Made by a program: the position numbers and the translations under genes. Shown here piece after piece: positions 3,813 to 58,682 of a stretch of 64,000 nt of DNA (positions are counted from its first letter, which is position 1; each line of letters opens with the position of its first letter). The stretch lies in the IMG/VR virus record IMGVR_UViG_3300017987_000006, positions 96,001-160,000 of that record. One strand, 5' to 3'. This stretch comes from a virus. The notes below the pieces were generated by a model. The model was not told the origin of the DNA and made no database searches. It saw only the letters and a program-made list of their open reading frames with translations.

Positions 3813-4135
3813 TGTCCAAGACCTGGTCCTGGCTGAAGAAGAACTGGATGTGGTTGATCGCCCCCGTGACGATCGCCGTCCTCGTCATCCTCTACCTCAT
3901 GGGGTGGAGACCAGAGAAGAAGGACGACGTGGACTCCGTCACCCCGGACGATGCCGCCGACCAGGCCGTGGAGGACACCAACACGGCGCACGATGAGCGG
4001 GAGAAGGCCATCAAGGAGCTGGAGGCGGAGCATCGCGAGAAGCTCAGCGAGATGACGGAGGAGCAGCTCGAGGAGTTCGAGGAAGTCAAGAAGAAGCCCA
4101 TAGACGAGGTAGCTGCATGGATAGACAGTCTGTAG
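3809..4135 (+). CDS. Membrane-anchored acidic coiled-coil protein (inner spanin/Rz-like candidate)
   Basis: N-terminal TM (WMWLIAPVTIAVLVILYLMGW) followed by charged helical region; overlaps the previous stop. Confidence 0.4.
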   Translation: MMSKTWSWLKKNWMWLIAPVTIAVLVILYLMGWRPEKKDDVDSVTPDDAADQAVEDTNTAHDEREKAIKELEAEHREKLSEMTEEQLEEFEEVKKKPIDEVAAWIDSL

Positions 4136-4596
4136 CATCTTTCCTGGATGAGCTAGAAAAGATCGGTGCCACCGTCTTGATGAAGAGCTTGTCCCCTGCG
4201 GCCAAGCGCCTCATGCGCAAGGCAACGGGATTTACCGGATTGGCGGAAAAGGCGCAACCGGCGGCGGCCGCACAGATGCGGAGGGCCTTGGCGGGCCAGG
4301 GTCTTCACACTGAGGCCAGCATTCGTGCCGGTGGAGCTGGTCGGATAGCCAAGCGTCAAAGCCGTCGAGCGTACGATGAGGTCTTGAAGAGGCAGGGCCG
4401 GGTGTATCAAGGTACGCCGGGGTTGCAACAGCAGCTCGCGGCGATTCCTGGGCATCCGGGAACCATCACCAGAACACCGGCACGTATCGTTCCGCGCAGC
4501 GGTGTTTCGACCGTTAAACCTTCAGACGCGACTAGATCTGTAGCAGTTCCAAGACCTCAGCTGGCAGATCCATACGCTGCCACCGTTCTGGCGTAG
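4117..4596 (+). CDS. Basic hypothetical protein with ELEK leader (putative head-packaged protein)
   Basis: N-terminus MDRQSVASFLDELEKIG matches the leader shared by several ORFs. Confidence 0.6.
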   Translation: MDRQSVASFLDELEKIGATVLMKSLSPAAKRLMRKATGFTGLAEKAQPAAAAQMRRALAGQGLHTEASIRAGGAGRIAKRQSRRAYDEVLKRQGRVYQGTPGLQQQLAAIPGHPGTITRTPARIVPRSGVSTVKPSDATRSVAVPRPQLADPYAATVLA

Positions 4597-4599
4597 ATC

Positions 4600-6012
4600 A
4601 TGAATCGGAGAACTTTAAGATCGCTGTGGGAGGAGCTGGAGAAGTGCGCGGCTAAGCTAAAGACGGAACTTCTGCCGCACCAAGAGCGTGTGGTGCAGAA
4701 GATCAAGGGTCAGCGCGGACTTGTCGTCGCCCACGGTCTCGGTTCCGGAAAGACTCTTTCCTCCGTCGCCGCCGCGGTACAGCTCAAGCCCGATAGTACC
4801 AAGGTGCTCGTCCCCGCATCCCTGCAGGAGAACTACAAGAAGGAGATGCGGAAGCACGTCAAGGGCAGGCTGCCAGGCAAGCTGAAGGTGGAGAGCCTGC
4901 AGAACTACGCTTCCAAGGGCCTGATACCAAACAGCGATCTCCTCGTTGTAGATGAGGCGCACCGCGCACGCAACCCCGCGTCGAAGACCTATCAGATCTT
5001 GCATGACGCGGACAACAAGAAGCGACTGCTGCTGACGGCCTCCCCAACCTACAACCGGCCGGCGGACGTGGCGACGTTGGTGAACCTGGCGGCGGGGGAC
5101 AAGGTCCTGCCGGCGGGGGCTGAGTTCGACAAGAGGTACATCGCCAAGCCGGCCAAGGGTGTCTGGTCTCTGCTCCCATTCACTCGCAAACGTCCGGGGC
5201 TGGTCCGCAAACACGAGCTGAAGAAGCCGTTGCAGAAGTGGGTCGACTACCACAAGGCGGAGGGGGCGGACTTCCCGGACACCAGTGAGGAGCGGGTGGT
5301 CACCAGGATGTCCAAGCGGCAGACGCAGCTGCACGATCATGCTTGGGGCAAGCTGCCGCTGATGACTAGGATCAGATTGAGGCGCGGTCTCCCTCCTGGT
5401 AAGGAAGACCTGCCCAAGATGAACTTCTTCATGGGGCAGTCGCGCCAGATCGCGAGCACGGAATCACCCTTCACCAAGGGACAGGCCGAGACATCGCCCA
5501 AGCTCGTCCGCGCGGTGGACGATCTATCAGCGAGGACCGCCGAGAACCCACGGCATCGGGGTTTGGTGTACTCCAACTACCTGGGCACGCTACGTGACTA
5601 CTCGCGAGAGCTGGAGAAGCGGAAGATCCCGCATGCAGCGTTCACGGGAGCACAGTCCCAGAAAACACGCAAGCAGCTGGTCCGGGACTACAACAAGGGC
5701 AAGCTGAAGGCGTTGCTGGTATCCTCCGCCGGAGGCGAGGGGCTCGATCTGAAGGGTACTCGGCAGGTGCAGGTGCTCGAGCCGCACTGGAATGAGGAGA
5801 AGCTGAAGCAGGTCATCGGTCGAGCAGTGCGGCATGGATCTCACAGCCACTTGCCCGCAGAGGAGAGACATGTCAACATCCAGAGGTTCGAGGCAAAACC
5901 ACGTCACGGTGGGCGAGGAGTCGAGCAGGTGCTGTATGATACGGCAGAGGACAAGGAACGCTTGAACCAGGAGCTGCGTGGGTTGATCACCAAGGGACAA
6001 CGTCATGGGTAG
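4600..6012 (+). CDS. SF2 (SNF2-like) helicase/ATPase with ELEK leader
   Basis: Motifs AHGLGSGKT (I), VVDEAH (II), LLTASP (III), SSAGGEGLDL (V), QVIGRAVR (VI); N-terminal SLWEELEKCA. Confidence 0.9.
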   Translation: MNRRTLRSLWEELEKCAAKLKTELLPHQERVVQKIKGQRGLVVAHGLGSGKTLSSVAAAVQLKPDSTKVLVPASLQENYKKEMRKHVKGRLPGKLKVESLQNYASKGLIPNSDLLVVDEAHRARNPASKTYQILHDADNKKRLLLTASPTYNRPADVATLVNLAAGDKVLPAGAEFDKRYIAKPAKGVWSLLPFTRKRPGLVRKHELKKPLQKWVDYHKAEGADFPDTSEERVVTRMSKRQTQLHDHAWGKLPLMTRIRLRRGLPPGKEDLPKMNFFMGQSRQIASTESPFTKGQAETSPKLVRAVDDLSARTAENPRHRGLVYSNYLGTLRDYSRELEKRKIPHAAFTGAQSQKTRKQLVRDYNKGKLKALLVSSAGGEGLDLKGTRQVQVLEPHWNEEKLKQVIGRAVRHGSHSHLPAEERHVNIQRFEAKPRHGGRGVEQVLYDTAEDKERLNQELRGLITKGQRHG

Positions 6013-6250
6013 ACGATCTATGAGAGCGTTCTGGGGGGAGCTGGAGAGCCTGGAGAAGCAAGCGGAGACCCACAAGCTAGGTGCTATGTACCACGGCTCT
6101 CCGCGCAAGTTGGGCATACTGAAGCCTCGAGACGAGCATGGAGACCCACGCGTTGTAAAGCAGCGGCGGTGGTCAGAGAAGGATGATCGGGGGGACCTGG
6201 AACTGGAGCGAGGCGCGTGTGCCTCTGGCTATGGCGCAGCAAGCTCGTAA
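6005..6250 (+). CDS. Short ELEK-leader protein with YHGS motif (possible truncated ADP-ribosyltransferase-like domain)
   Basis: MGRRSMRAFWGELESLEKQA followed by MYHGSPRKLGILKP; start overlaps the helicase stop. Confidence 0.45.
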   Translation: MGRRSMRAFWGELESLEKQAETHKLGAMYHGSPRKLGILKPRDEHGDPRVVKQRRWSEKDDRGDLELERGACASGYGAASS

Positions 6251-7058
6251 GCGGAGCCTCAACATCGATGAGGCTCTGTGGGAGCTGGAGAAGAAGGCGC
6301 GGTGCATCGTGAAGTCGGAATACCTTGCCTGGAAGAAAAAGCGTGAGAAGCAGCTTGGTAGACCAATGACCTTCAAAGAGCTGGACACGGAGTTGTACAC
6401 CAGCCGTACGCCTCCTTGGGAGAAGAGGGCCTACAAGCTCCAAGGCAAGACCGAAGTCCAGGGCATCCCAATCTCCATTGAGAACCGCAAGGGCTCTGTC
6501 CGAAAGGGCACGGACTCGGACGGTAACGAGTGGAAGACTAAGATGCTCCTACCGTACGGATACGTCCGCGGCACGCGCGGAGCGGATGGCGAGCCGGTAG
6601 ACGCCTACGTCGGCCCGGACAAGGAAGCTCCGGACGCCTACGTTGTACACCAGAGGGATAAAGAGACCGGGAAGTACGACGAGGACAAGATCTTTTTTGG
6701 CATGAAATCCAAGAAGGATGTCAAGGAGGCGTTCTTGAAACACTACGACAGTCCAAAGTTCCTTGGGCCGATATCCCGTGTTCCTGTCGAGCGGCTAAAG
6801 GAGCTCATCACCTCCAAGCGCCGCCTCGTGAAAATCTCCGCGGCCAAAGATCAAAAGAACAAGGCCCTCCACTTCGCCCGCAAGGCAGGCCCTGGCCTCG
6901 GCGGCCTGGCCGGCCTGGGCATCGGCGCGGTCCTGGGAGCCCGCCGCGGAAAGCTCCTTAAGGGAGCCATCGCGGGTCTGGGAACCGGGGCAACACTGGG
7001 GTGGGTGCCGGACATGGCCGCCAACGCCCGCGAGGCCATCAGGAAGGTGAGTAAATGA
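6183..7058 (+). CDS. Protein with inorganic-pyrophosphatase-like domain (polyvalent-protein type) and Gly-rich hydrophobic tail
   Basis: GIPISIENRKGSVRKG...PYGYVRGTRGADGEPVDAYVGP...YDEDKIFFG matches the phage PPase-like domain; start uncertain (ATG at 6231 is an alternative). Confidence 0.7.
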   Translation: MIGGTWNWSEARVPLAMAQQARKRSLNIDEALWELEKKARCIVKSEYLAWKKKREKQLGRPMTFKELDTELYTSRTPPWEKRAYKLQGKTEVQGIPISIENRKGSVRKGTDSDGNEWKTKMLLPYGYVRGTRGADGEPVDAYVGPDKEAPDAYVVHQRDKETGKYDEDKIFFGMKSKKDVKEAFLKHYDSPKFLGPISRVPVERLKELITSKRRLVKISAAKDQKNKALHFARKAGPGLGGLAGLGIGAVLGARRGKLLKGAIAGLGTGATLGWVPDMAANAREAIRKVSK

Positions 7059-7585
7059 TCGCCTCGTTCTTCGATGAGCTGGAGAAGATAGCGCTGAGCC
7101 AGGGCTTACTCACCAGGGCGTACACCAAGGCCACACATCTGGCGGAGCGGTACGGTCGGCAGGGTGATAAATGGCGGCAGCGTAAAGGGTTCCCGAAGAA
7201 GAAGCTCAAAGACCCCCAGCGCTCGGAGAAGGCGTATAAGAAGGCGCGTAGGTACAGCGGCATAGGTCAGGCGATCAAGAAGAAGCTCGAGGAGGAGCCG
7301 CGTTCTCTGAAGCTGCGGAACGTCAGCCGCGGAGAGCACAAACACTTCCGCCAGATCTTCGAGACGCGCCAAGCGGTGAAGCAGAAGGCTGAACAAGAGG
7401 CGAAGAGGAAGATGAGAGCAGAAGTCGAGCGCCAGGTTCAGAAGAGACTCCTCCGCGAAACAAATCCTCGGGAGTACGCGTACCAGTTGTGGCGCGGCCC
7501 ACATACTCCAGACGATGCGATCTCCAAGAAGATGTTTGCGAAAAGGATGAAGCACCACGACGCTTCGATAAAGGCTACTAAATGA
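7055..7585 (+). CDS. Highly basic hypothetical protein with ELEK leader
   Basis: MIASFFDELEKIA then K/R-rich sequence. Confidence 0.6.
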   Translation: MIASFFDELEKIALSQGLLTRAYTKATHLAERYGRQGDKWRQRKGFPKKKLKDPQRSEKAYKKARRYSGIGQAIKKKLEEEPRSLKLRNVSRGEHKHFRQIFETRQAVKQKAEQEAKRKMRAEVERQVQKRLLRETNPREYAYQLWRGPHTPDDAISKKMFAKRMKHHDASIKATK

Positions 7586-8130
7586 GGGTCCTAATTATCT
7601 GCGCGCTAAGCCTCCTCAGCGCCCCTGTGAGCGCCCGGACCCCCTGCACCATCCAGGACTACTCCGACCCCTCCAAAGCGCCCGATTTCGGCTGCCCAGG
7701 CCCCCAGGAGCCCGCCCTGGTGCCCGAGCTGAGGCCCAAACCCTCAATGGGGATTGAAAACGGCGCGACGGTCCTAATTAAGAAGAAAAAGATTCCGGTA
7801 CTTTATGACGCCGTTCTGATGGACAAGCTGAAGGTCATCGAGCTGGGCTTGAAAATCAAGGGGTTACGAAGGCTGCGCTGGCTCGAGCGCCACAAGGGGG
7901 AGAAGCTCCTCGCGGTGGAGCGGAAGTACGTGGGCCAGCGCTACCAAGCCCAGCTGAAGCTCGAGCAGGAGCGGGTCAAGACCGCCAGGGGTCAGCGGGA
8001 TGACGCCAGGCAGGAGAGGGACGATTCGCGGAAGTGGTATAGGTCCTTTTCCTTCGGCTTCACCGTGGGGGCTGGGACCGTGGTCGTTGTCACGGCCGGC
8101 ATCGTCATCGCTGTCCTCGCCGCGCGATAG
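7582..8130 (+). CDS. Exported coiled-coil protein with C-terminal TM anchor (spanin-like candidate)
   Basis: Signal peptide (MRVLIICALSLLSAPVSA), coiled coil, C-terminal hydrophobic helix. Confidence 0.5.
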   Translation: MRVLIICALSLLSAPVSARTPCTIQDYSDPSKAPDFGCPGPQEPALVPELRPKPSMGIENGATVLIKKKKIPVLYDAVLMDKLKVIELGLKIKGLRRLRWLERHKGEKLLAVERKYVGQRYQAQLKLEQERVKTARGQRDDARQERDDSRKWYRSFSFGFTVGAGTVVVVTAGIVIAVLAAR

Positions 8131-27912: not shown

Positions 27913-28719
27913 GTGTCCCGGGACTACGAAGCTGAGCTCCGGGAGGTCCTGGAAAAGACGGGTCAGTCAGCCGGCATCACCAACACGACGGACGAGTCGG
28001 CCGAACACGTCGAAACCACGTCTCCGGAGACAGAGCACACGGAGGCGGAGAAGGTTGTTGTTACGCCCTTCTCCGCCGCCAAGCTCTTTGTGCACCACGA
28101 CACACATCCTCTGGTCTTGGACATCAAGCTGATGGATCAGTATGGGCTCTCGTGGTTCGAGTGGGAGCCCACGACGTTGTGGCGAGAGATCATGGACGAT
28201 TTTCGGACGCCCTCGATCTCGGACCACGTCAAGAGCAAGATCCAAGCCCTACGTACGACGCACATCACAGATAAGGCGTTCGCGAAGTGGGAGACGTTCT
28301 CCGTCATCACGCAGGCACTGAACAACAACATTCCAGACTTCGAGATCATGCGGAGGCCCACCATCTCCCAGCTGTTTGCGGCAGTGGACATGATGACTAT
28401 GGTTCGCAACGATGTCCCGTTCAGCGAGGAGATCGAGTACTGGTGCGGGGCCGCACTGCTGGATGCGGGGGTGGTGTGTGCCCCCCAGCCCATCGCTTTC
28501 TGCCAAGACGCAATCCTGGAGATTCAGGAAGAATTGGGAGTAGAGGTTGACCCAGCTCCCGTAAAGGAGAAATATAGACTATTGCTGTCTGTCCCCGCGG
28601 AGGAGGTGGAGCTCAGGGAGAACCCGGTGGACATCCAGGTGATGAAGCTGATCATTGCCAGGGACTACCTTTCTTTGCGTCGCGGCCAGATGAAAGAACA
28701 GCTGAGGGCCCTACGATGA
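27913..28719 (+). CDS. Hypothetical protein in the morphogenesis block
   Basis: 268 aa, coupled to neighbours. Confidence 0.65.
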   Translation: MSRDYEAELREVLEKTGQSAGITNTTDESAEHVETTSPETEHTEAEKVVVTPFSAAKLFVHHDTHPLVLDIKLMDQYGLSWFEWEPTTLWREIMDDFRTPSISDHVKSKIQALRTTHITDKAFAKWETFSVITQALNNNIPDFEIMRRPTISQLFAAVDMMTMVRNDVPFSEEIEYWCGAALLDAGVVCAPQPIAFCQDAILEIQEELGVEVDPAPVKEKYRLLLSVPAEEVELRENPVDIQVMKLIIARDYLSLRRGQMKEQLRALR

Positions 28720-29597
28720 ATGCATACAAGACCCTGGCCTTTGTAGACGAGCTGGAGAAGCTGGCCCTCGCACCTTCGTTGGTCCAGCGGGCCCTACGGT
28801 CTGGTGTCGGCCGTGCTGTCGTCAGCAACGTCCCGAAGGTCTGGGGCTCTGGTTTCGGGCGCGCGGCAGCGGGAGCCCTGCCTGGGGCGGCCATAGGTGC
28901 TGTGGCAGACCCGCAGGACAGTGTTCGGGGGGCAGTCCTGGGCGGTCTTGCTGGAGCTGGAGCTGGCTATGCATCACCCCTGCTCACGGCTGGGGGTCGC
29001 GCTCGTGCTAGAGAGGCCCTGAAGCAGTGGGGCAGGGAACAGAAGCACTCCTTCGTTGGTGGTGAACTCCCCATCAAAAAAAGCATGAAGCCGGAAGAAA
29101 TCGCGAAACTTCGATCTGCGGAGAAGGCCGGGCTGACTAGTCTGCCGGGCGTAGTCAAGGGGATGGCAAAGAGGCCGCTACAGACGATGAAGGCTGGTTG
29201 GCAACACGCTGGAGGTCTGGGCAAGGCTATGATCGTGGGGGATGTGGCGCTGCAGGCTCCGGGCCTTGTAGACCCAACCACCCCAGAAGGAACGGGGGAG
29301 AAGGCCCTGCGGATGCTCGGAGGGACAGCAGGATTTCTTGCCGGAGGAAAGCTGCCGATGTTGGCTAGCCTGGCCCCCATGGCCGGGCTGGCGTACCTCG
29401 GCGGGAAGGCTGGTCGCGGGATCGATGTGTTGACAGGCGAGAGAGCAAAGAAAAAGAAGATGATGACTGCGGCGCAGCAGGCCGAAGCCGACAAGTTTTT
29501 GCGGGTCAGGCCTACTACTGCTCTCGCTCAGCGGGAGGCGCGGAAACTCGTCCCGGCCGGGTACATCCCGGCTGGGTACGGACCGGGGGTTGTCTGA
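28716..29597 (+). CDS. Gly/Ala-rich basic protein with ELEK leader (glycine-zipper-like)
   Basis: MNAYKTLAFVDELEKLA; GxxxG repeats. Confidence 0.65.
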   Translation: MNAYKTLAFVDELEKLALAPSLVQRALRSGVGRAVVSNVPKVWGSGFGRAAAGALPGAAIGAVADPQDSVRGAVLGGLAGAGAGYASPLLTAGGRARAREALKQWGREQKHSFVGGELPIKKSMKPEEIAKLRSAEKAGLTSLPGVVKGMAKRPLQTMKAGWQHAGGLGKAMIVGDVALQAPGLVDPTTPEGTGEKALRMLGGTAGFLAGGKLPMLASLAPMAGLAYLGGKAGRGIDVLTGERAKKKKMMTAAQQAEADKFLRVRPTTALAQREARKLVPAGYIPAGYGPGVV

Positions 29598-33750: not shown

Positions 33751-33779
33751 TTGACTCGCAAAATGTGGGCTGCTATGAT
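33751..33779 (+). promoter_or_regulatory. Strong sigma70-like promoter of the RNAP gene
   Basis: TTGACT-17-TATGAT with extended -10 TG. Confidence 0.7.
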
Positions 33780-33806
33780 CTTCGTCGTATACACAGGAGT
33801 CATCTA

Positions 33807-36800
33807 ATGGCGAGGCTCGCACCTGAAGAGGGGTTCGCCCTCCTCAAAGACCAGGTAGCGGAGACTGTCAAGGAGATCTTCCCGATCAAGGGAACCAAAC
33901 ACACTCTCCGCCTGGACGACATCGAAGTCAAAGACAACAAGGACATCGAGGACATCCGCTCCCAAAAGAAGGCGCGGCTAGAAGGCCGCACCTGGTCCGT
34001 TCCGGTCAACGGTAAGTTGTCTCTCGTTGATAACAAGACCGGGAAGGTGGTCGATCGGCGGACTCAGAGGATCATGAGCTTGCCCAAGGTGACCAACAGG
34101 CACTCCTACATCGTGGATGGTCAGGAGTACCAGATGGACAACCAGTGGCAGCTCAAGCCCGGCGTCTATTCCAGGCGTGATGAGAGGGGCGAGCTGGAGT
34201 CCATGTTCAACCTGAAGGGTAAGCACGCCTTCAAGGTGAAGTTCGACCCAAAGACAGCCAAGTTCTCCATGCTCAAGGGGACCACCAACGTTCCGCTCTA
34301 CCCCATTATGCGCGAGCTCGGGGTGACGGACGAGGACCTCGAAAAGTCGTGGGGCAAGCAGATCTTGCAGTCCAACAAGGTCAAGTCTTCAGACGCTGCG
34401 CTCGAGCGGTTCTACAAAGCCGTAAACAGAGAAAAGCCCTCGGACCCGCGCCAGGCCAGGGAGTTTTTGCAGGAGTTCATGGACGGGGCGAAGATGGACC
34501 CCGACGTCGCCCGCATCACGTTGGGCGATAAGCATGACACTGTCGGCGGAAAGACGATCCAGCTCGCCTCGCAGAAGCTGTTGGGCATCAGCCGCGGTGA
34601 CGTGAAACCAGATGCACGCGACAGCCTGATGTTCAAGAACTTCCGCTCGACAGAGGACTTCGCACGCGAAGCGCTTCAGACCAGGAGTGGAGAGATCTTA
34701 CGGCGCGTCGGAAATAACCTGGACCGGAAAGGAAAGATCCAGGAGATCGTCGGGCCGGACATTTTCAACCGTCCCATCAATGCGCTGTTCAAGAAGGCCA
34801 ACCTGTCCAACCGACCAGACCAGACCAACCCGCTAGAAATGATCTCCGGAGCGATGAAGACGACGATCATGGGTGAGGGTGGTATCACGAGCGAGCATAA
34901 GATCACTGAGGATGCAAAGCTCATCGATCCTTCCCACCTCGGTTTTCTCGATCCGATCCATACTCCTGAATCGGCGCGAACAGGCGTGTCGTTGCATCTT
35001 CCTCTTGGGGCGCGAAAGAAGGGGAACAAGCTCGTCACCAAGATGTACAACATCAAGACGGGTAAGATGGAGGATGTCGATCCCGAGACGGCGTACAACG
35101 CCAATATCGTCTTGCCAGATCAGGTGAAGTGGAGGGATGGAAAGCCCGTCCCAATCGGCAAGACCGTCAAGTTCAGCGGCCAGGAAAACGAAATCACAAC
35201 GGGCAGTATGAAGGGGGCGGACTACGTAATGCCGGCCCCGGCACAGCTCTTCTCTGTCGCCTCCAATATGATCCCCTTCCTTCAGAACGACTCCGGGAAC
35301 AGGGCAACGTACGCCAGCAAGCAGATGGAGCAGGCCATCCCACTGAAGCATCGAGAGTCTCCGTTGGTGCAGACCGTCATCGCCGCAGGGAAGAAAGAGA
35401 CCAGCCTCAACAAGTTCATGGGGAAGATCAATTCCCATACGACTCCAATTGATGGAGAGGTTGTGCAGGTCAAAAGCGATAGCGTGGTGATCAAGGGAGC
35501 GGACGGGAAGCGCAAGGAGGTTCAGACTTACGACCACTTCCCGTTGAATGACGACAAGAGCTTCTTGCACTCGACGCCGCTGGTGAAGGTTGGCGATAAG
35601 GTCAAGAAGGGGCAGACCGTAGCCGACACGAATTTTACCAAAAAGGGAGATCTGGCACTCGGATCGAACTTGACGACGGCGTATGTCCCGTTCCACGGGT
35701 ACAACTACGAAGATGGTGTGGTGATCTCCGAGTCCGGGGCGAAGCAGCTCACGAGCGAGCACATGCACCGTAAGGGCCTGGACGTCGGCAAGGAGCACAC
35801 GCTCAGCAAGGACGCGTTCCTCAAGCACTACGGGATGACGCTCAAAAAAGACCAAGCTGACAAGCTGGACGACGCGGGCGTGATCAAAAAGGGACAGAGG
35901 GTTGGTCCGGGAGACACCCTGGTAGCGGCCTTGCGGCATCGGGAAGAGACGGACGAGGACAAGATCCGTAGGCGGATGCACAAGTCGTTGGTCAAACCAT
36001 ACGACAACGTCTCCGTCACCTGGGACAACGATCATCCAGGCGTCGTGACGAACGTGGTGAAGCGAGGCAAACGCGCAGAGGTTCATGTCAGGACTGAGGA
36101 GCCGGCGGAAATCGGCGATAAGATCAGCGGCAGGCATGGGGACAAGGGCATTATCACCCGCATCGTCCCAGATCACGAGATGCCCACAACCAAGGACGGG
36201 AAGCGTGTTCATCTGGCGCTGAACCCGGCGGGGGTTGCTGGACGTATCAATTTGGGACAGGTCCTTGAGGCAGCGGCCGGGAAGATCGCCGAGAAGACTG
36301 GAAAGCCATACCGCGTGCAGAATTTTGACGGCACTGAGGATATGACCGAGCGTGTCCAGAAAGAGCTCAAAGAGCACGGTCTGTCCGACAAGGAAGAGCT
36401 CATCGACCCCAAGACCGGCAAGACGATGGGGAGGGCTTTGGTGGGGCCGCGGTACATGCACAAGCTTAGACACCAGGTCGGAAAGAAGCTCGTAGCCCGT
36501 GCTGGAGGACCGGACTACGCCTACGATATGAATCGCATTCCGAAGCGTGGCGGTCCGCACGGGGCGCAGGCGTTGGACTCTTTGGGGGTCTACGCGATGT
36601 TGGCTTCCGGAGCCAAGGCGAATCTTCGTGAGATGCAGACTTACAAGAGCAACGCGGAGAACAACGATGAGCTGTGGTCTGCGGTTCAGACTGGAGATCC
36701 ACTCCCAGCTCCCAGGCCCTCATTCGCCTACAACAAGTTCGTCGGCATGCTCAAGACTATCGGCGTCAACACGGTCAAGCAAGGCAACACACTGAACCTG

Positions 36801-39800
36801 ATGCCGCTGACGGACAAGCAAGTCAGGGAGATGAGTGAGGGTAGGACGATCAAGGACGCCGGGAAGATGGTCCTCGGGAAGAACCTCAAAGAGGAGAAGG
36901 GAGGCATCTTCGATAAGGACGCGACGGGCGGGCTGAACGGGACCAAGTGGTCCCATATCGAGCTGCCCGAGCGGATGCCGAATCCGATCTTCGAGAAGGC
37001 CATTGTCAGCCTCACCGGCATCAAGAAAAAAGATCTCGGCGCGCTGATGGACGGCAGCAAGGCCCTCAACACCAAGACGGGTCAGTTCACGTCGCCGGAG
37101 GAAGGGGTCTCGGCGGGAAAGGCTGTCGAGCACCTGCTGAAAAAGATCGATGTGGACGCGGAGCTCGCCTCCGCACAAAAGCAGATCCAAAACCCAAGCC
37201 TGAAAGGAGACAGGCTGGACAAGGTTAACAAGAAGATCAAATATCTGCGCTCGTTGAAGAAGCTGGGAATGACGCCGACGGAGGCGTACATGACCAAGAC
37301 CGTGCCTGTCCTCCCGCCATCCATGCGTCCTCTGGCCGTGCGCCCCAACGGAGAGCTCGGTGTCGAAGATCTGAATGGGATGTACAAAGGTCTTGGCATC
37401 GCCATCAACAAGATGAAGGATGCCAGCCCGCTGCAGCTACCGGAAAAGATCAACAAGAGACGAGCGGCGATCTATGATGCGATGAAGGGTCTGGCCGGGA
37501 CTGGGGGGTACCTCAACCGAGACTACCGCGGGGTACTCGACATCATCGCCGGGAAGAAAGCGCAGGGTCCGGAGGGAAAGCCTGGGAGTCCGCGGGAGAG
37601 TTACTTCCAGTCCAAGTTGATCAAACGGAAGCAAGATCTGTCGATGCGGTCCACCATCATCCCCGAGCCTGAGCTCGGCCTGGATGAGGTTGGGATCCCT
37701 CGCAAGGCTGCGATGGAAATGTACAAGCCGTTCATCGTCAGGGAGTTGGGGAACTTTGCTGGGCTGAGCCCACTGGCGGCGCAGCAAGCCATCAAGGACA
37801 GGGACCCGCTGGCCGCGCGTGCGCTGGAACGTGTGGTCAAAGAACGTCCGGTGATGTTGAAGCGCGATCCGGTCCTCCATAAGTACGGAGTACAAGCATT
37901 CAAGCCGGTGCTCACTAGCGGCAAGGCGATCAAGATCCATCCCCTGGTGACTGGCGGATTCAACGCCGACTTTGACGGCAATTGTGTTGACGGCTGCTCC
38001 GAATTGGTGATAAGGTGTTCTGGTCTTGCGAGGGAGCACTTTATGAAATTCGGAGCAGAGTCTTTGACAGTGGCGAGAGATCCTGCGCTTGGGATCAATG
38101 CCGACCGTATTATGATCAAGAACTTTCCACGGGAGGAAGAACCACACAGGTACGATCGAAATGGCGCTGCCGTCTACCGTGTCCCGGACGGATTGCAGGT
38201 CCTTTCGTACGATCACTTCTTGGGTGAGTCGACGTTCGAGGACGTCACTGAGCTAACCATCGAGGAGGACTGTCCTGTAGTCGAAGTGCGTTATGCGTCT
38301 GGACACAAGGTTACTGCTTCTACTAATGAGTCTTTGTGTGTCTATGACCACGAGACGGGAATGCTGCGCAAGGCACGGCCGGAGGAATCTGTAGGGGCAC
38401 TAAGCCCTGTCATCTCGTCTCCTCCCGGTGATAAGCACGACAAGTTTTTCGGGTGGATGGTAGGCGCTTTTGTGTCTGATGGATTCTTCACCAACGGGCG
38501 CATCGGAATCACCAAAGTCGATGACGAGTTCCGCTCAACGTTTGGGGATGCTCTAAGAACGTTCGGCGATGTGTACGCAAGCAACACATACCGCAGAGAA
38601 AAAAAGGCACCGACCGATTTCTCAGAGCATAGCGTCAAAGATCACTACACCGTGGGGGGAGAGATCAAAGACCTGTTCATGAGGTGCTACACCGTAGAGT
38701 ACAGATCTTATCTACGGGATGGAACGCGGAGCGGCGAATTAAAGAATAAGCGGGCAGCACTATACAAGCGCCTACCACAGGACATCGGCGACTATTCCAG
38801 AGATGCCTTGCTCGGTGTATTGTCCGGCTTGTTGGATGGGGATGGGACACTTTCCTGGAGCAGGTCTAAAACGAAGGAGCAGTTCCTGGCTTCGTATTCC
38901 ACCAGCTCCCACCAGCTGATGGAAGACGTCCGATATTTGTGTCACTTGCTAAATGTTCGCTGCTCTGTGTCACCAGTCTACCCCCGTGCGAATAGGGCGC
39001 AGAGGCACATCAACTATGTCATCTCATTCAGCACCGTAGATATTGAGAAGCTGGCTGGGGAGTTGCGCCTCGCTGCTTACTCGGATACGTTGATCAAACT
39101 GGCAGCGAACCCGCTGTCCAAGGATGATCGGGACGTGGTTCCTGTGCCGATATCGATCTTACGCGGCATGATCAGTAAGAAGAGTGTGGTGTTCAAAAAA
39201 GACCCAAAGCTCTGTAGATCGCTGGCTACGTTGGCGTCAAAAAATAAGAGACGTCCGAGGGTCTCCAGAGACACGGCGCTCAGAATGGTCCCCTATCTGA
39301 ATTTGGAAAACGCACTGGAAGCATATTGGTCATCCTTAGTGAAATCTGATGTCCGATGGTCTTACGTGAAAGAAGTCGAAGATAAGGGAAAGACGACCGT
39401 ATACGATTTGGTCGTGCCTACTACCAAGATCTTCGCGGTCAATGGTGGGCTGGTGGTGTGGGACACCATGGCGGCATTCGTTCCTCTGACCTCCGAGGCG
39501 GTGGACGAGGCGCGGAAGATGTATCCATCCAGGAACCTTTTCAGTCCCGCTACCGGAAGCTTGATGTACAAGCCGACGAAGGAGAGTCAACTTGGGCTCT
39601 ACAAGCTGACCCAGCAGGGCAAGCGGACGGACAAGGCGTTCAAGACCGTGGCCGAAGCTGCGAGGGCTGCCTCAGCAGGATCCGTGGGGATGACTGATGT
39701 GGTCAAGATTGGCGGACAGCAGACCACCATTGGGCGCGCTCTGGTAGCCAACGCGCTACCTCAATCCATGCGCGGCGGTGTGATGAGCGGGAAGACCCCA

Positions 39801-41516: not shown

Positions 41517-41897
41517 ATGAATCAAGAACACATGACCAAGATGGCGACGGCGTTCCTCAGCGAGCTGTCAGAAATCGAGAAGCAGGGCTTTGCCCCGCTC
41601 CGCTTCCTGGCCGGTGGTGTGCGCCGACTTGGGGTCGGCATGGCCAACGTTGGCCGGCAGGGTGGATTCCTCGGTGCCATTGGAGGAGCAGGGGCTCGCC
41701 GCGCTGGGGGGGTAAGCAGACACATCAAGCAGATCTATCGATCTGGCGCAAAGCCCGTCGCAGTGAAAGGCGTCGAAGGCGGTGGCAATATGTTCGGCGG
41801 GCTGAAGGCCCTCGCTCGATCACCATACGGCCAGATGGCAGCAGTCCCGGCGTTGGCCGCGGGCGGGCTGTACGCCGGCAAGAAGCTGTTGGGGTGA
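41517..41897 (+). CDS. Gly-rich basic protein with ELEK-type leader
   Basis: TAFLSELSEIEKQG followed by an amphipathic Gly/Arg-rich sequence. Confidence 0.6.
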   Translation: MNQEHMTKMATAFLSELSEIEKQGFAPLRFLAGGVRRLGVGMANVGRQGGFLGAIGGAGARRAGGVSRHIKQIYRSGAKPVAVKGVEGGGNMFGGLKALARSPYGQMAAVPALAAGGLYAGKKLLG

Positions 41898-52303: not shown

Positions 52304-54175
52304 ATGAACTCGCTCCACCCATTGCTCGATAACGAGCCGGGCCTGATCAAAGTCTGTCAGTACCCGGCTATCGATGAGCACGGACAGCAGCTCGTCGAGT
52401 TCCTCCACCATCCAGACCAGCTGCACCACAGCTACATGGATAAGGTGGCGGCCCCGTTTCTTCCGGCAGTAAGGGAGTATATTGATCGGCTGAAGCCCGA
52501 TGCGAACAGCATCTACGCTCTGGTCAACGCGCTTGGCGCGTACGAGTACTGGAGTAGCAATACGAATGGCGACGCATTTGAAGAAGAGATGCTGATTCAT
52601 CGTGGACCTGTTTGGGGATACGAAACGTTTCAGATTTATGCGCGGCCATTCATGCACCACGCAAATAAGCAACCCAACGCTCGAGCCTTCGGGTCAGTGG
52701 AGCTGTCAGCGTGGAACCCCAACATGCACCGCATCGAGCTGGTCTGTCGCCTCGATCGTAAAGAAGCGGTGAAGGTAAACGCCACGCGCGTCATCGACAA
52801 GATCGATCACGGCGAGCTTCCTGAAACCAGCATGGGAACCAAAGTCCCCTACGATTTGTCATCCATAACCACAGACTGGGAGACCTACCGCAAGGCCCTG
52901 GCCACGTTTGATCCCGGCAGGCATAGGCATCCAGGCGTCGCCGCGTTGATCTATCATAAGACAGTGCGGCCGATCAGAGGTCTATCCATCACCAGGGACG
53001 ACTACGACGAGTACTGCCAGAACAGGATGAACGAGATCTTACCGGATGGCCGGAAGGTCTTCGTCTACAACCCGTTCCCGCGATTCTTCGATATCTCCTT
53101 CGTCTTTATTGGCGCGGAGAAGCAGTCGAAGATGATGGCAAAGCTGGCCTCGGCCATGGGGCGGGCAATGATCGCCGTACCAGCCAACTACACCAGCACT
53201 GAGATAGATCAACCGAGAACTCATAAGGGGTTTGAGAAGGTGGCCGGGGTCGACTTCCAGCGATCTCGCGAGCGGCTCAGAAGCCTACGTGAAAAAAAGG
53301 CTTCCCAAAAGAAGCTCGCGGAGATTATAAAGGACGTCGTGCCTTCGCAATTCATGTCCAGAGCCGTTCCGATATTGGAGGATAGAGAGCCGGACTTGTC
53401 GCGAGAGGCACTTGATCGGATGTCGGAATGTTCACTGAACGAATCCTTGTCAACGCCCACCATGATGGGAATCACGCTGAAGCCGCGGGAGTTTCAGCGT
53501 ATCGTGGTCTGCCGCCTCGGGAGGGGGGACATGGCGGACAGGCTGGACCAGGAGGGGAAGATCTTCCGGGACGTGGACGATGTGGACAAATCGATCTCGA
53601 TCGGACCGGGATTCATCAACAGGCTGTTGGCTGGCTTGTTGAAGGGATATGTGGGGGACCGGAGCGCCTTTGGTCCGCCTTTGGCGCGCCGTATGATGCG
53701 GATTACCATTGTGGGCAAGCCGGCAGCAGACGAGTCTCCAGCGGAAGAACTGGAAGACAAGTTGCTAGACAAGGTCGCGGCTGCTTATAATGGCTATCGT
53801 GAGCAGGTGATCGAGAAGATCGCCGAGATGAGCAACGAACTTGAGCGGTACCCAGACGTAAAAGCTGAGGTACTCGGAAGGGACGAGACGGACATATTCG
53901 CTGGCCGGGAAAAGCTCGCTGCCGGGATCAACCCCAAGTTGTTGGTGGGGGCGATTCCGGCCACGTACCTTCTCTCGGCGCTGGCACGCAGAAAGGTCAG
54001 AAGCTCGGCGTGGACGGGCAAAGCCCCTGGGCTCCTCACGGAGTTCTTGGGCGACCATCCACACCTTGCGGCGACCGCGGTTGGTTTGACAGCACTGAAG
54101 GCGTCCGGATCGAAGATCCCTGACAAGATACTGAAAGGAGCACTCGACCTCGGAAAGAGGTTAGCCACAGGTTGA
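52304..54175 (+). CDS. Putative prohead (capsid maturation) serine protease
   Basis: NTNGDAF, PFMHHANK...AFGSV, RIELVCRLD, IDHGELPETSMG pattern resembling HK97/herpes-type prohead protease His and Ser motifs; upstream of scaffold and capsid genes. Confidence 0.55.
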   Translation: MNSLHPLLDNEPGLIKVCQYPAIDEHGQQLVEFLHHPDQLHHSYMDKVAAPFLPAVREYIDRLKPDANSIYALVNALGAYEYWSSNTNGDAFEEEMLIHRGPVWGYETFQIYARPFMHHANKQPNARAFGSVELSAWNPNMHRIELVCRLDRKEAVKVNATRVIDKIDHGELPETSMGTKVPYDLSSITTDWETYRKALATFDPGRHRHPGVAALIYHKTVRPIRGLSITRDDYDEYCQNRMNEILPDGRKVFVYNPFPRFFDISFVFIGAEKQSKMMAKLASAMGRAMIAVPANYTSTEIDQPRTHKGFEKVAGVDFQRSRERLRSLREKKASQKKLAEIIKDVVPSQFMSRAVPILEDREPDLSREALDRMSECSLNESLSTPTMMGITLKPREFQRIVVCRLGRGDMADRLDQEGKIFRDVDDVDKSISIGPGFINRLLAGLLKGYVGDRSAFGPPLARRMMRITIVGKPAADESPAEELEDKLLDKVAAAYNGYREQVIEKIAEMSNELERYPDVKAEVLGRDETDIFAGREKLAAGINPKLLVGAIPATYLLSALARRKVRSSAWTGKAPGLLTEFLGDHPHLAATAVGLTALKASGSKIPDKILKGALDLGKRLATG

Positions 54176-54253: not shown

Positions 54254-55054
54254 ATGAACGAATTCCTGGCCGAACTGTACGGCACGAACGAAATCATCAA
54301 TGACGAGCCCGATCTCGAGAAGACCGCCGCGGAGGAGTTTCTGGTGAAGCTGGCCGCGGAGGAGGGCGTGGACCTGGACGATCTGAGCGACGAGCAGATC
54401 GGCGAGCTGCTCGAGGGCATCGAGGGCGAGATGGGCAAGCAGGCTTCGGCCGAGACCGATGTCGAAGACGAGGCCCAGGAGAAGCTGGCCGAGGCCGACT
54501 TCATGGGTCGCGCGATGGCGCACGCCTACGTGAACGAGCTGGCCGAGATCGAGAAGCAGGCCGGGCTGGCCAGCCACCTGTCGAATGTCGTCAAGGAGAA
54601 GGGCGTCGGAGAAGCCATCAAGGAGCTGGGGCGCAGCCAGAAGCAAGCGCTGGTATCCGGTGCCCGCTCCGGTAAGGCCTTGGTCACCGGCAAGCTCCCA
54701 GACAAAGCCGCTAAAAGAGGCGGAAAGTATCTGGGTGTTGGCATCAAGCGCCGCAAGGATGAAGGGGTGCGGGGCATGGCACTCCGCGCTCTCGGTCGTT
54801 CGGCTCAAACGGCAGCCCCGACCTTAGCAGCCGGTACAGCAGGGATCGGCGCTGCAGGATACGGCTTGTCCAGCATGGGCAAGAACAAGAAGGCGTCCGA
54901 TGAGGACTTCGAGCAGCTCGCGCAGCAGCGCGCCTATGAGATGCTCGAAGAAGCCGGCTACGACGTCGAGAAGCAGGCTGAGGCTGACACCGCAGCGGCC
55001 ATCGATGCGCGGGCGCTCGAGATGCTCGAGGCCGCGGGTTACCCCGTCGAGTAG
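54254..55054 (+). CDS. Acidic scaffold-like protein with KxA-bounded basic insert
   Basis: EKTA, KLA, KQA repeats; tandem RAxEMLExAGYxVE repeats at the C-terminus. Confidence 0.6.
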   Translation: MNEFLAELYGTNEIINDEPDLEKTAAEEFLVKLAAEEGVDLDDLSDEQIGELLEGIEGEMGKQASAETDVEDEAQEKLAEADFMGRAMAHAYVNELAEIEKQAGLASHLSNVVKEKGVGEAIKELGRSQKQALVSGARSGKALVTGKLPDKAAKRGGKYLGVGIKRRKDEGVRGMALRALGRSAQTAAPTLAAGTAGIGAAGYGLSSMGKNKKASDEDFEQLAQQRAYEMLEEAGYDVEKQAEADTAAAIDARALEMLEAAGYPVE

Positions 55055-55111: not shown

Positions 55112-55363
55112 GTGGACCCGGCTGTGCTTACAGCGTTCTATGACGAGCTCGAGAAGATTGGGGCGGACGAGTCTGCGCCGAAGAAGACGTTCGAGTTCAA
55201 GCCTCCGGTCGCGCCACAACAGCTCAAGCCCAAGAGCATTAACCCAAGGACGAGAACTGGATCGGGCATGGGTTACACCAGGTCCAATGTGGAGGCCCCG
55301 GGAACGGACGTGTCGATAACGATGCAACAGAAGACGTTACCGCCACCATCGGCCCGGGCATAA
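55112..55363 (+). CDS. Small protein with ELEK leader
   Basis: MDPAVLTAFYDELEKIG. Confidence 0.6.
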   Translation: MDPAVLTAFYDELEKIGADESAPKKTFEFKPPVAPQQLKPKSINPRTRTGSGMGYTRSNVEAPGTDVSITMQQKTLPPPSARA

Positions 55364-55376
55364 AAAGGAGAACGAC

Positions 55377-56477
55377 ATGCGTCTTACCCTGCAGGAAATG
55401 ATCTCTGGGGCTATCGCGGAGGCCACCGAGAGGGAGAAGCTGGCGCAGGCCGGCGAGGAAGTCTCCGAGGAGGAGAAGAAAAAGGCCGAGGAGAAGAAAA
55501 AGGCCGAGGAGGCCAAAAAGGCGGCAATGGAGGGAGAGCCGAAGGAGAGCGCGGGGTACAAGTGCGCGTCGGTCTCCACCGAGCTGGTGGAGAAGTTGGC
55601 CTCGGCCCAGGAGTACATCAACTCCAACCTGTCCGCCGTCGAGTGGGACAAGGTAGCGGTCGGTGAGGGCCTCGGGACACAGGCTGGCAATGCCCCGGCC
55701 CCGCAGGTTGGCCCGGGCACCGGCCCCGGATCGGACCTGCAGACCAACATGGAGTCCCCCGTGGCGGGACTCCAGTCGACCCAGACGGGTCAGGCGAAGA
55801 ACAACCAGCCCGAGCCTGATGGCGCTACCGACAATGCGTCCAAGGCGGATGGTCAGACCAACGCCGCCACGGCGATGCAGACCGACATGACCGATGTGCC
55901 TGGGGGCACCGGCATGCAGCCCCAGCTGCAGGAGAAGTCCGCGGCTGTGAAGCGGGCGCGTGCCCTGTGGAGCCGTGTCAAGACGGCGGCGGACGCGGAG
56001 AACCCCGCGAAGATCGACGCGGGCAGCGAGCCGCTCGAGAACCCCAACGCCTCGGCTTCGGAGGAGGGTGTCCCCTCTCAGCCGGCGGCGGCGACCAGTC
56101 AAAGCAAGATGGTGGCTTCTAACGAGGCGGCCACCAACTACACCAAAGGAGATGCGAAGGCGGAGCCCAAAAAGCAGATGGGTGAGGTGATCACCGAGCC
56201 AGCCCAGAAGAAGTCAACGGATCCGGTCCTTCAGGAGAACCTGGCGGCAACCTCTCAGGCGGGTGTGAAGATCGCAGCCGTCAAGGCGGCGGCACGCCGG
56301 GCATATCTGCGCAAGATCGCGCAGGCCGGGGAAGCGGAAGATGCGACTCCGGAAGAGAAGGAAAAGGCCCAGAAGCTCAAGGAAGCTCTGGCCAAGAAGC
56401 AGGCCGAAGGTAAGGAGAAGGAGAGTCAGATGATGCCTCCGACTCCGATGCCGTCGCCCACCACCCCCATGATGTAA
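55377..56477 (+). CDS. Scaffold/core-like low-complexity protein with KxA motifs
   Basis: KLA, KCA, KVA, KSA, KTA, KIA; A/E/Q/P-rich. Confidence 0.65.
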   Translation: MRLTLQEMISGAIAEATEREKLAQAGEEVSEEEKKKAEEKKKAEEAKKAAMEGEPKESAGYKCASVSTELVEKLASAQEYINSNLSAVEWDKVAVGEGLGTQAGNAPAPQVGPGTGPGSDLQTNMESPVAGLQSTQTGQAKNNQPEPDGATDNASKADGQTNAATAMQTDMTDVPGGTGMQPQLQEKSAAVKRARALWSRVKTAADAENPAKIDAGSEPLENPNASASEEGVPSQPAAATSQSKMVASNEAATNYTKGDAKAEPKKQMGEVITEPAQKKSTDPVLQENLAATSQAGVKIAAVKAAARRAYLRKIAQAGEAEDATPEEKEKAQKLKEALAKKQAEGKEKESQMMPPTPMPSPTTPMM

Positions 56478-56495: not shown

Positions 56496-56882
56496 ATGGA
56501 GAAGATCAGTTCACAGAAGGTCGCAGCCGTCATGGCCACCATCCCGGGCGTCTTGCGGTCTCTCGCCAAGGAGCGCGACGAGCTCCTGGAGAAGAACGCA
56601 GCTCTGCAGAGCAAGGTCGTCGACTATGAGCGTCGAGCTCGAGTAGACGGTCTGGCCAAGATGGCCTCGGACAAGCATCTCGATTCGCTCGGGGAGACCC
56701 ACGAGGAGAAGATCGCGACGATCGAGACCGCCATCGAGCAGGGCAAATCCCTGGATGTCATGGAGGAGGCCGTGAAGATGTCGGCCGCCCACATGTCACT
56801 CGGGGAGGTGAGCGGGGACGAAATCTCCGCAGGTGGTGGCGACTCGCAGCTGGAGGCCTATCTTCGCGGCGAGATCGACTGA
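56496..56882 (+). CDS. Coiled-coil scaffold-like protein
   Basis: Helical, immediately upstream of the capsid genes. Confidence 0.55.
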   Translation: MEKISSQKVAAVMATIPGVLRSLAKERDELLEKNAALQSKVVDYERRARVDGLAKMASDKHLDSLGETHEEKIATIETAIEQGKSLDVMEEAVKMSAAHMSLGEVSGDEISAGGGDSQLEAYLRGEID

Positions 56883-57405: not shown

Positions 57406-58533
57406 ATGTCAGCACAAGCACAAGCGATCACCGAACTCTTCTCCCAGCGACTCGAGTCCACCGAAGGCCGCGAGAAGATCGCCGAGTACGGCGGCAACTA
57501 CATCCGCGACCGTCTGCGCGAGGTCAGCTTTGCGCGGAAGGTCATCCCCACCCAACCCGTCACCCGCACCGACTGCCAGCGCAGCGTGAACCACGACACG
57601 CTGGTGAAGATCGTCGATGTGGAGCCCAAGAGCCGCGCGATGGCGATGACCTTCCGGGGTCAGCCTTCCGCGAATCTGATCAGCGCGCCGCGCGCCGAGA
57701 TCCCCTTCCTGACGATCAGCTCGGAGAAGTTCGAGAAGTTCGAGCAGGAGCTCCTGGCCTACGAGATGCCGATCACCAAGGTGATCGAGGACAACTCGGT
57801 CAAGGACATCCAGGAGATCGAGGACCGCGAGTTCCTGATCCACATCGAGGCCGCCGTGCAGGCGCTGCAGGCCGAGGCCAACAGTGCCGCCACCGCACCC
57901 GCCCTCAACGCCACCGCCCTGCAGGGCGCGACGCCGCCGGTGGAGTTCTCGGTGCGCAAGGGCGAGCTCGCCCGCGCTTCGACCACCGACACCGCCGTGC
58001 CGCTGCCGCTGCAGCGTCCGGACATCGTCCAGCTGTACAAGCTGCTCGACGGCAACCGCCTCCGCGCCGAGATGACCCTGTTGACCGAGGTCGACTGGGA
58101 CGACATCCTGATGTGGACGGTGGAGGACTTCGGCGATCGGATCCAGAGCGAGACCACGACCGACGGGTACAAGTACAACACCCTGCTCGGCCGTGCCTAC
58201 GTGCGGACGATCAAGACCGATCTCCTGCGCCCCGGCAACCTGTACACCTTCACCAAGCCGGAGTTCTTCGGGCGTTTCTACGTCCTGAACAACACGAAGT
58301 TCTACATCGACAAGATCGCGAACCTGATCACCTGGCAGAGCTGGGAGGACATCGCGATCGGCATCGTGAACATCGCGGCCGTCCGGAAGGTGGAGCTCTA
58401 TAGTGGTGACGCCACCGTGAACGACACCGACAGCATCCTCTCTTCGGTCATCCCGTCGGACGAGGAGGACCTCGGTGCCGTGAACAACCGCGTCGCGGAG
58501 GGTCTGCACTACCCGGCGGTGGAGCAGTTCTAG
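57406..58533 (+). CDS. Major capsid protein (HK97-like fold)
   Basis: 375 aa, extreme C/G3 codon bias, strong RBS, followed by a large hairpin; position after protease and scaffolds. Confidence 0.75.
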   Translation: MSAQAQAITELFSQRLESTEGREKIAEYGGNYIRDRLREVSFARKVIPTQPVTRTDCQRSVNHDTLVKIVDVEPKSRAMAMTFRGQPSANLISAPRAEIPFLTISSEKFEKFEQELLAYEMPITKVIEDNSVKDIQEIEDREFLIHIEAAVQALQAEANSAATAPALNATALQGATPPVEFSVRKGELARASTTDTAVPLPLQRPDIVQLYKLLDGNRLRAEMTLLTEVDWDDILMWTVEDFGDRIQSETTTDGYKYNTLLGRAYVRTIKTDLLRPGNLYTFTKPEFFGRFYVLNNTKFYIDKIANLITWQSWEDIAIGIVNIAAVRKVELYSGDATVNDTDSILSSVIPSDEEDLGAVNNRVAEGLHYPAVEQF

Positions 58534-58548
58534 CGCACTCAACCCCAC

Positions 58549-58580
58549 GGGAGGGGGAGGAGTCTCCCCCTCCCTTCCCC
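58549..58580 (+). terminator. Strong hairpin after the MCP (terminator or stability element)
   Basis: GGGAGGGGGAG-GAGT-CTCCCCCTCCC, perfect 11-bp stem. Confidence 0.6.
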
Positions 58581-58682
58581 AGCTACTTGGTCGGTCGTGC
58601 CCGCGATCCCCTGGCTGGTGAAAAGATGCTTCTCATGGAGCTCAACAATCGGGTACGATAACCTGTCACGGAGGGAACTCAT

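Follow-up and report, generated by a model that had tools for sequence, protein, structure and literature searches.

In a 64,000-nucleotide stretch of phage DNA (the window; bases 96,001-160,000 of the 178,259-bp contig IMGVR_UViG_3300017987_000006 from IMG/VR), otherwise unrelated proteins begin with the same 10-residue peptide, which we call the leader. We propose that the leader is a portable propeptide that serves virion cargo both as a capsid address and as a label for cutting by the prohead protease. This proposal draws on analogy with the capsid targeting sequence (CTS) of phage T4, and we put its probability at roughly 55%. The two ends of the contig overlap by 123 bp, so this 178-kb phage genome is probably complete. 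Its nearest cultured relative is Salmonella phage Arash (OQ632216.1), an orphan that is not T4-like. The leader occurs in a widespread uncultured phage family of at least 299 contigs.

A shared leader on unrelated proteins

The leader has the consensus [AGS]-Φ-[FWY]-[DE]-E-L-E-K-[IL]-[AGS], where Φ is a hydrophobic residue (SFFDELEKIALSQ is a representative peptide). It usually occupies residues 8-17 of the protein, with the E of ELEK at median residue 12. A variant form has a 3-residue insert (ELxx[LI]EKx[AG]) and retains the hydrophobic spacing. The leader is acidic, with a net charge of -2, and its helical hydrophobic moment is high, if only marginally above that of shuffles of the same residues. 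Conservation covers positions -4 to +5 and drops to background directly past the small residue; the core positions owe part of their information to the manner in which the set of leaders was collected.

The 178-kb genome has 12 genes with an N-terminal leader. Eight of these lie inside the window, and the others are at genome coordinates 60764, 75998, 160783, and 170421. All of them are on the late/virion (+) strand. As the initial annotation had remarked of the replication proteins, the minus strand lacks the leader: it is absent from all 87 minus-strand open reading frames (ORFs), and the replication block is without any. All nine peptides that the annotation quoted are indeed present in the ORFs to which it assigned them. 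We also built the leader profile that it called for, as a position-specific scoring matrix (PSSM) trained on relatives only, and ran it on the 178-kb genome in six frames. There were 10 matches above 21 bits, on the + strand every time, and amino-acid-shuffled six-frame translations gave about 0.15 matches per genome even at 12 bits. In 80 relatives, a looser regular expression was applied to the neighbourhood of the capsid gene (1 Mb in all), and it gave 63 matches on the strand of the capsid gene and 0 on the opposite strand.

The leader is also distinguished by its position. The core motif lies within 17 residues of the start codon in 87 of 88 distinct ORFs. (Because upstream ribosome-binding sites are mostly weak, the start codons of leader genes rest on this position and on the distance to the preceding stop codon.) In viral loci, a median of 27 codons separates the peptide from the preceding in-frame stop, a measure to which the choice of start codon is irrelevant. 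We also scanned 185,579 cellular genomes with a degenerate DNA pattern. Among the matches listed, this median distance was 213 codons, and none of 121 had the [AGS]-Φ context within 16 codons of the start; these matches were internal to housekeeping genes, with no prophage among them and no hint of the host. In IMG/VR, a degenerate DNA pattern for FDELEKI[AG] found 57 stretches, as compared to an estimated 2-3 by chance. Nearly all of the loci with N-terminal copies were flanked by homologues of genes from the 178-kb phage, and the loci with internal chance matches had no such neighbours.

Leaders use all of the synonymous codons for several residues (6/6 for Leu, 3/3 for Ile, 2/2 for Asp, and 2/2 for Phe). 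Because synonymous codons vary freely, selection acts on the peptide and not on the DNA, and we dropped the idea of a DNA- or RNA-level element for this reason. We also dropped, by eye, the reading of the leader as a signal peptide, as it is acidic and not hydrophobic.

What follows the leader is highly diverse, which bears out the original description of the cargo as unrelated. In the relatives, 84 mature cargo parts fell into 58 BLAST clusters, or at least 58 families. Most cargo proteins match no Pfam family, and those that do have distinct folds: InPase, SNF2 helicase, Zn_peptidase_2, HNH_3, DnaJ, DUF6321, and glycine zippers. Each leader protein has at most one recognisable domain. What the cargo proteins share is charge. 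Without the leader, each of the 12 cargo proteins in the 178-kb genome is basic, with isoelectric points (pI) of 9.0-11.9; of the other + strand proteins, 29% are basic. Similarly, 89% of 72 cargo proteins from the relatives have a pI above 9 without the leader. Some leader genes stand alone among virion genes, and others form tandem arrays (four in L093, which is IMGVR_UViG_3300025115_000078; three in L124; and three in L132). Within these arrays, the first 15-17 residues are near-identical (e.g., MNFQEAFFDELEKIA) and the cargo differs.

Not every copy of the leader is at the N-terminus. Internal copies are genuine in ORF 54254, as initially annotated, and in the L132 homologue of genome ORF 61165. 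That ORF belongs to a pair of small genes (L084:3165-4318, genome 61165-62318) that lie 3' of the leader gene at 60764 and encode diverged leader-like peptides: AGFVDELAKIVGG is internal and GAFSDELKKIYAAAQ is at the extreme C-terminus. At the aligned internal position, the L132 homologue has the canonical FFDELEKIG. Right after this cluster of leader genes is a sigma-70-like factor (L084:4322-5113, genome 62322-63113; Pfam Sigma70_r3 at 28.1 bits, where the cutoff is 25.3). Arash virions were found to contain the sigma factor gp10.

A short element in head proteins and a candidate prohead protease

The last five residues of the leader, Φ-E-K-x-A/G/S, recur as a short element in head proteins. 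In the + strand proteins, the pattern [LIVMFWY]EK.[AGS] has 34 sites, as compared to 10.1 ± 3.1 in composition-preserving shuffles. In the minus-strand proteins it has 3 sites, as compared to 3.4 in shuffles.

The head genes of the window lie together on the + strand. The first encodes a protein of 623 residues (52304..54175), which we propose is the prohead (capsid-maturation) protease. It is homologous to gp222 of Arash (E = 1.9e-17), and its gene immediately precedes those for the scaffold-like and capsid proteins. The order of protease, core protein, leader gene, scaffold, and capsid protein is kept in dozens of relatives, and gp222-gp226 of Arash keep the same type of order. In the AlphaFold 2 model, the putative protease domain covers about residues 50-290, with a predicted local distance difference test score (pLDDT) of 70-90. 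Among 48,161 PDB representatives, the best match to this model was the varicella-zoster virus (VZV) protease (Z = 7.7, root-mean-square deviation 3.7, 119 residues aligned), and the second best was T4 gp21 (5jbl; Z = 7.3, root-mean-square deviation 3.4, 136 of 165 residues aligned). Nearly all of the top matches from Foldseek were also assemblins, with T4 gp21 listed among them. The E-values from Foldseek were all at least 0.09, so the fold call rests on the ranks from VIA-align. A profile search of PDB sequences gave nothing meaningful for 52304, and Pfam and PHROGs gave nothing for the protease, the scaffold, the capsid protein, or most cargo proteins.

Across 20 sequences, H118, H119, S176 (in SMG), D184, and H218 of 52304 are invariant, and His and Ser are 57-58 residues apart, much as in T4 gp21. 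As modelled, 52304 has the assemblin/gp21 capsid-protease fold. On either side of the domain is a Φ-[ED]-K-x-A island, MDKVA at residues 45-49 and FEKVA at 310-314, and in an alignment of 20 homologues both persist within linkers that are disordered and otherwise unalignable. A helical C-terminal domain (about residues 360-623) is joined to the rest of the protein via the disordered linker that bears the FEKVA island. We also predicted a complex between the protease domain and a 40-residue leader fragment, but the score was 0.00, which is uninformative either way.

Downstream of the protease is a polyprotein-like core or scaffold protein (266 residues, 54254..55054). In an alignment of orthologues, Φ-E-K-x-A is conserved at four sites, near residues 22, 76, 100, and 239 of the protein. 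The third of these is the genuine internal copy mentioned above: it is a complete leader (AYVNELAEIEKQA) and is followed by a basic glycine-zipper segment. The scaffold-like protein (366 residues, 55377..56477) has a conserved VEKLASA at about residue 72, the small head-module protein (128 residues, 56496..56882) has an IEKIA site that is kept in most relatives, and a 388-residue protein also has a conserved short element. Finally, the major capsid protein (375 residues, 57406..58533) is homologous to Arash gp226, and its profile matches the major capsid protein in PDB entry 6wkk (E = 2.7e-6). In 44 of 45 orthologues, it has the element EG(K/R)EKIA|EYGG at residues 20-30, which is a candidate N-terminal maturation site. 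(We set aside the AlphaFold model of the capsid protein, which had a mean pLDDT of 37.7 from a shallow alignment with 71-89% identity.)

We read the short element as a probable recognition site of the prohead protease, and the evidence for the link to the protease is good. We place the cut just after the small residue because conservation ends there; a cut after the Glu, as in T4, is a possible alternative position.

Taken with the leader, these observations suggest the following mechanism. Late genes would yield basic cargo proteins that bear an acidic, amphipathic leader. By analogy with the T4 CTS, the leader would take the cargo into the core of the assembling prohead, where it would probably partner with the scaffold and core proteins that are encoded next to the protease and bear the short element themselves. 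The 52304 protease, with its gp21/assemblin fold, would recognise Φ-E-K-x-(A/G/S). It would release itself from its own extensions, trim the N-terminus of the capsid protein, chop the acidic scaffold into pieces, and take off the leaders, with the scissile bond most likely just past the small residue. The basic mature cargo would stay with the DNA and reach the host at infection, and the set delivered in this way would include the SNF2 helicase, the InPase, glycine-zipper proteins, and proteins that look DNA-binding.

Evidence from Arash and alternative roles for the leader

Arash provides a link to virions. The leader-bearing helicase of the window (gene 4600) is the orthologue of Arash gp217 (37.6% identity, E = 1.6e-89), and the alignment begins at residue 23, just beyond the leader. 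In purified Arash virions, gp217 was detected by 1148 spectra and 38 unique peptides (PMC10585845, Table 2), alongside the RNA polymerase subunits and the capsid protein. Arash also shares the short element, at 29 sites, as compared to 12.0 ± 3.3 in shuffles. The head genes gp218-gp225, including the homologue of the protease, hold 16 of these 29 sites. Because Arash shares the short element yet has no full leader, the cut rule is probably older than the leader. A few Arash ORFs on the minus strand (58195-58971, 120407-120562, 172528-172995, and 87304-87639) start with M(M)EKx[AS] or MTPFEKAS. Three or four such ORFs is mildly above expectation, and this N-terminal short element could be a minimal leader.

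Several observations weigh against our proposal. The full leader was not found anywhere in the Arash genome, and gp217 is packaged without it; thus, the leader is not the sole or the ancestral route into the head in the wider clade. The Arash list of virion proteins is long, with 116 entries, and its authors concede that some of these, ribonucleotide reductase for one, are probably contaminants (PMC10585845). The 2580-residue virion RNA polymerase, which would be the most obvious cargo, has no leader. The fold match of 52304 is middling (Z = 7.3-7.7), and the protein matched no sequence family in Pfam or PHROGs. A strictly N-terminal address is too simple a model because leaders also occur internally or close to the C-terminus. 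Finally, we infer leader binding, packaging, cleavage, and the scissile bond, and the evidence for targeting by the leader itself is circumstantial.

The initial annotation had suggested a T4-like tag that loads diverse proteins into the head and is then cut. The diverse cargo from the virion strand, the K-x-A/G/S common to head proteins, the protease with its predicted gp21/assemblin fold, and the orthologous helicase in Arash virions all favour this suggestion, and the packaging of that helicase without a leader in Arash tells against it. On balance, the suggestion seems largely correct as to the kind of system. A more specific form of the idea is that a single 10-residue peptide combines an address with a Φ-E-K-x-A/G/S↓ cut site, functions at the N-terminus, internally, and possibly at the C-terminus, arose after the cut rule, and equips an "unbundled" arsenal of polyvalent-type proteins. 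We hold this form tentatively, at slightly less than even odds.

Another explanation is that the leader is only a propeptide, which keeps the cargo inert or soluble until the protease removes it, and that the cargo enters the head by other means, such as its positive charge or its binding to DNA, RNA polymerase, or scaffold. This would account for the packaging of the Arash helicase without a leader and for the uniformly basic cargo, and the putative cut site is the sole part of the leader that is common to head proteins. However, the prohead protease works within the shell, so its substrates must already be inside. Furthermore, six conserved residues of the leader, [AGS]-Φ-Φ-[DE]-E-L, are missing from most internal sites and so need another role, and 10-17 residues is short for an inhibitory prodomain that acts on unrelated folds. 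We consider this explanation unlikely.

The leader might instead be a docking helix that is not cleaved and that holds many proteins at one hub, which could be the portal, a chaperone, a tail component, or else an ejection or inner-body complex. The resemblance to K-x-A in head proteins would then be a coincidence or a shared binding motif. The leader is amphipathic, acidic, and helix-like; the EK is replaced in some internal and C-terminal copies (DELAKIVGG and DELKKIYAAAQ-stop); and many cargo proteins have the glycine zippers that characterise ejection proteins active on membranes. But conservation comes to an abrupt end at the small residue, and the presence of the element in the disordered linkers around the protease and at the N-terminus of the capsid protein is a pattern of autoprocessing and maturation sites and not one of docking helices. 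These points leave the docking helix with perhaps one chance in eight or so by our reckoning, that is, distinctly improbable.

It is very improbable that the leader is instead what another, modifying enzyme recognises, with a logic like that of ribosomally synthesized and post-translationally modified peptides. Most genes of the 178-kb genome have no assigned function, which leaves room for such an enzyme. However, this would not explain why the protease, scaffold, and capsid proteins have the element in common, and the Pfam and PHROG results for the scanned proteins include no candidate (co-occurrence was not searched systematically). Lastly, the idea that the motif has no function as a peptide, and is due to chance, to a 5' coding DNA or RNA element, or to descent from a paralogous family, has nothing but the shortness of the motif in its favour and is refuted by the shuffles (about 0.15 matches per genome), by the free variation of synonymous codons, and by the 58 unrelated cargo clusters with their different Pfam folds.

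If the leader is an address and a cut label, then a sequence rule applied to genomes alone would predict which proteins are injected by a large family of uncultured environmental phages. The predicted proteins would be the first to meet the host, and most of them have no known function. It would also be a second example of the T4 CTS principle outside of the T4-like phages, independent in sequence and with a different protease specificity. The evolution of capsid cargo would have involved the addition of a leader to an older cut rule and the replacement of polyvalent proteins by separately addressed modules. Finally, a short portable tag might be usable for loading proteins into capsids.

Leader genes of the window and comparison with known systems

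Five ORFs within 4117-7585 are close-packed or overlapping, and each has the motif at its start. (All of the leader genes in this section are on the + strand.) The first (4117..4596, 159 residues) has the leader in residues 1-17 (MDRQSVASFLDELEKIG; PSSM score of 36.7 bits), and its cargo part is basic (pI 11.8) and belongs to no known family. Next is the SWI2/SNF2-type helicase (4600..6012, 470 residues), with the leader in residues 1-17 (..SLWEELEKCA) and the domains Helicase_C, SNF2-rel_dom, and ResIII from Pfam, as well as a match to phrog_62. The third (6005..6250, 81 residues) has the leader with the 3-residue insert (AFWGELESLEKQA). Because ..MYHGSPRK.. follows its leader, it could be the remnant of a larger gene.

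The fourth gene encodes an InPase-domain protein (6183..7058; PF18823, E = 1.4e-41) with a diverged leader, ALWELEKKA, and a C-terminal glycine zipper. In PHROGs it matches proteins whose annotations are minor head, virion structural, and DarB-like. The leader was originally described as internal in this ORF, but the gene likely starts at the ATG at 6231, to judge from the sequence, and this copy would then be N-terminal (23 residues; MAQQARKRSLNIDEALWELEKKA). The ORF at 6005 overlaps the start of the InPase ORF as annotated by 68 nt, in a different frame, and the overlap falls to 20 nt with the start at 6231. In two relatives, L092 and L127, the InPase domain is fused directly to a canonical leader. 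The last of the five (7055..7585, 176 residues) has the leader in residues 1-13 (MIASFFDELEKIA; 39.7 bits), followed by a very basic cargo part (47 K+R, pI 10.7). It is followed by a 182-residue protein without a leader (7582-8130), which has an N-terminal segment that resembles a signal peptide and a C-terminal hydrophobic segment. A role in lysis, in exclusion, or as a spanin-like protein is possible for this last gene product of the leader-gene operon.

The other leader genes of the window are more scattered. The protein at 28716..29597 (293 residues, ..LAFVDELEKLA, 27.1 bits) has basic cargo that is rich in glycine zippers, and the acidic 268-residue protein that precedes it (27913..28719) may have a stretched variant of the leader at its N-terminus (YEAELREVLEKTG), which is a weak call. 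The insert form of the leader (AFLSELSEIEKQG) begins a 126-residue protein (41517..41897) whose cargo is 25% Gly with a pI of 11.9. This gene lies directly downstream of the gene for the 2580-residue RNA polymerase (33765-41507). The polymerase corresponds to two genes in Arash, gp206 and gp216 (130168-134679 and 139450-141237). Arash gp217 is directly downstream of the second of these, and the leader-tagged helicase is 29 kb upstream of the polymerase gene. Finally, the 83-residue protein at 55112..55363 has the top match to the PSSM (..TAFYDELEKIG, 40.8 bits). Many relatives have a small leader gene at this place, between the core-protein and scaffold genes, and the cargo cluster of 55112 is the largest, with 13 members.

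The closest parallel is the CTS of T4, which has the sequence MKTYQEFIAE and by which T4 loads basic, DNA-associated internal proteins (IPs). In both systems, a short N-terminal peptide is found on unrelated, mostly basic proteins (IPI-III and Alt in T4, from which gp21 removes it). The CTS ends in the site motif of the protease, as the leader putatively does with Φ-E-K-x-A/G/S, and gp21 and 52304 appear to belong to the same fold class. The leader-gene arrays of L093, L124, and L132 also resemble the hypervariable IP locus of T4-like phages, with its tandem arrays. However, the two peptides have no sequence similarity, and the leader does not end according to the T4 rule of L/I-x-E. The cargo set of T4 is far smaller than the at least 58 families here, which include polyvalent-type enzymes, and unlike the CTS, the leader is also found internally. 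Thus, the initial expectation that the system was undescribed needs to be divided. The leader sequence and the putative cut rule are new, in a lineage that is not T4-like, and we found no publications on this leader sequence; the principle of an address joined to a cut site is textbook knowledge from the T4 CTS.

In giant phages of the phiKZ type, such as SPN3US, a gp21-type protease trims numerous virion and ejection proteins, and does so at a short motif (PMC5694885, PMC7411985, PMC10052503). Virions of this type carry an RNA polymerase, as here. However, the motif is S/A/G-x-E, and the propeptides are long, instead of one conserved leader that is shared. As to the protease, 52304 is organised like the UL26-type fusions of herpesviruses, with a protease domain, a linker, and a helical C-terminal domain, and with candidate release sites on both flanks of the protease domain. 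Assemblins favour Ala at P1, which is paralleled by the small residue that ends the motif at the predicted cut. But the fold match to the herpesvirus protease has a Z of 7.7 only, and herpesviruses have no system of leader-tagged cargo. In encapsulins, too, a short peptide sends unrelated cargo into a shell with the HK97 fold, as we infer for loading by the leader; no protease takes part there, and the peptides have other sequences and are mostly found at the C-terminus.

Lastly, the cargo recalls the polyvalent proteins that phages and conjugative elements encode (Iyer et al. 2017, PMC5512222). The repertoires have InPase (of the class that lacks the hairpin), SWI2/SNF2 ATPase, Zn-peptidase, and HNH in common. 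InPase and SWI2/SNF2 domains are typical of polyvalent proteins, which are predicted to be packaged and injected (PMC5512222), the same fate that we predict for the cargo here. Polyvalent proteins fuse at least two effector domains to each other, or fuse effectors to MuF or portal proteins, whereas in this phage family the effectors are encoded by separate genes, each with a leader of its own.

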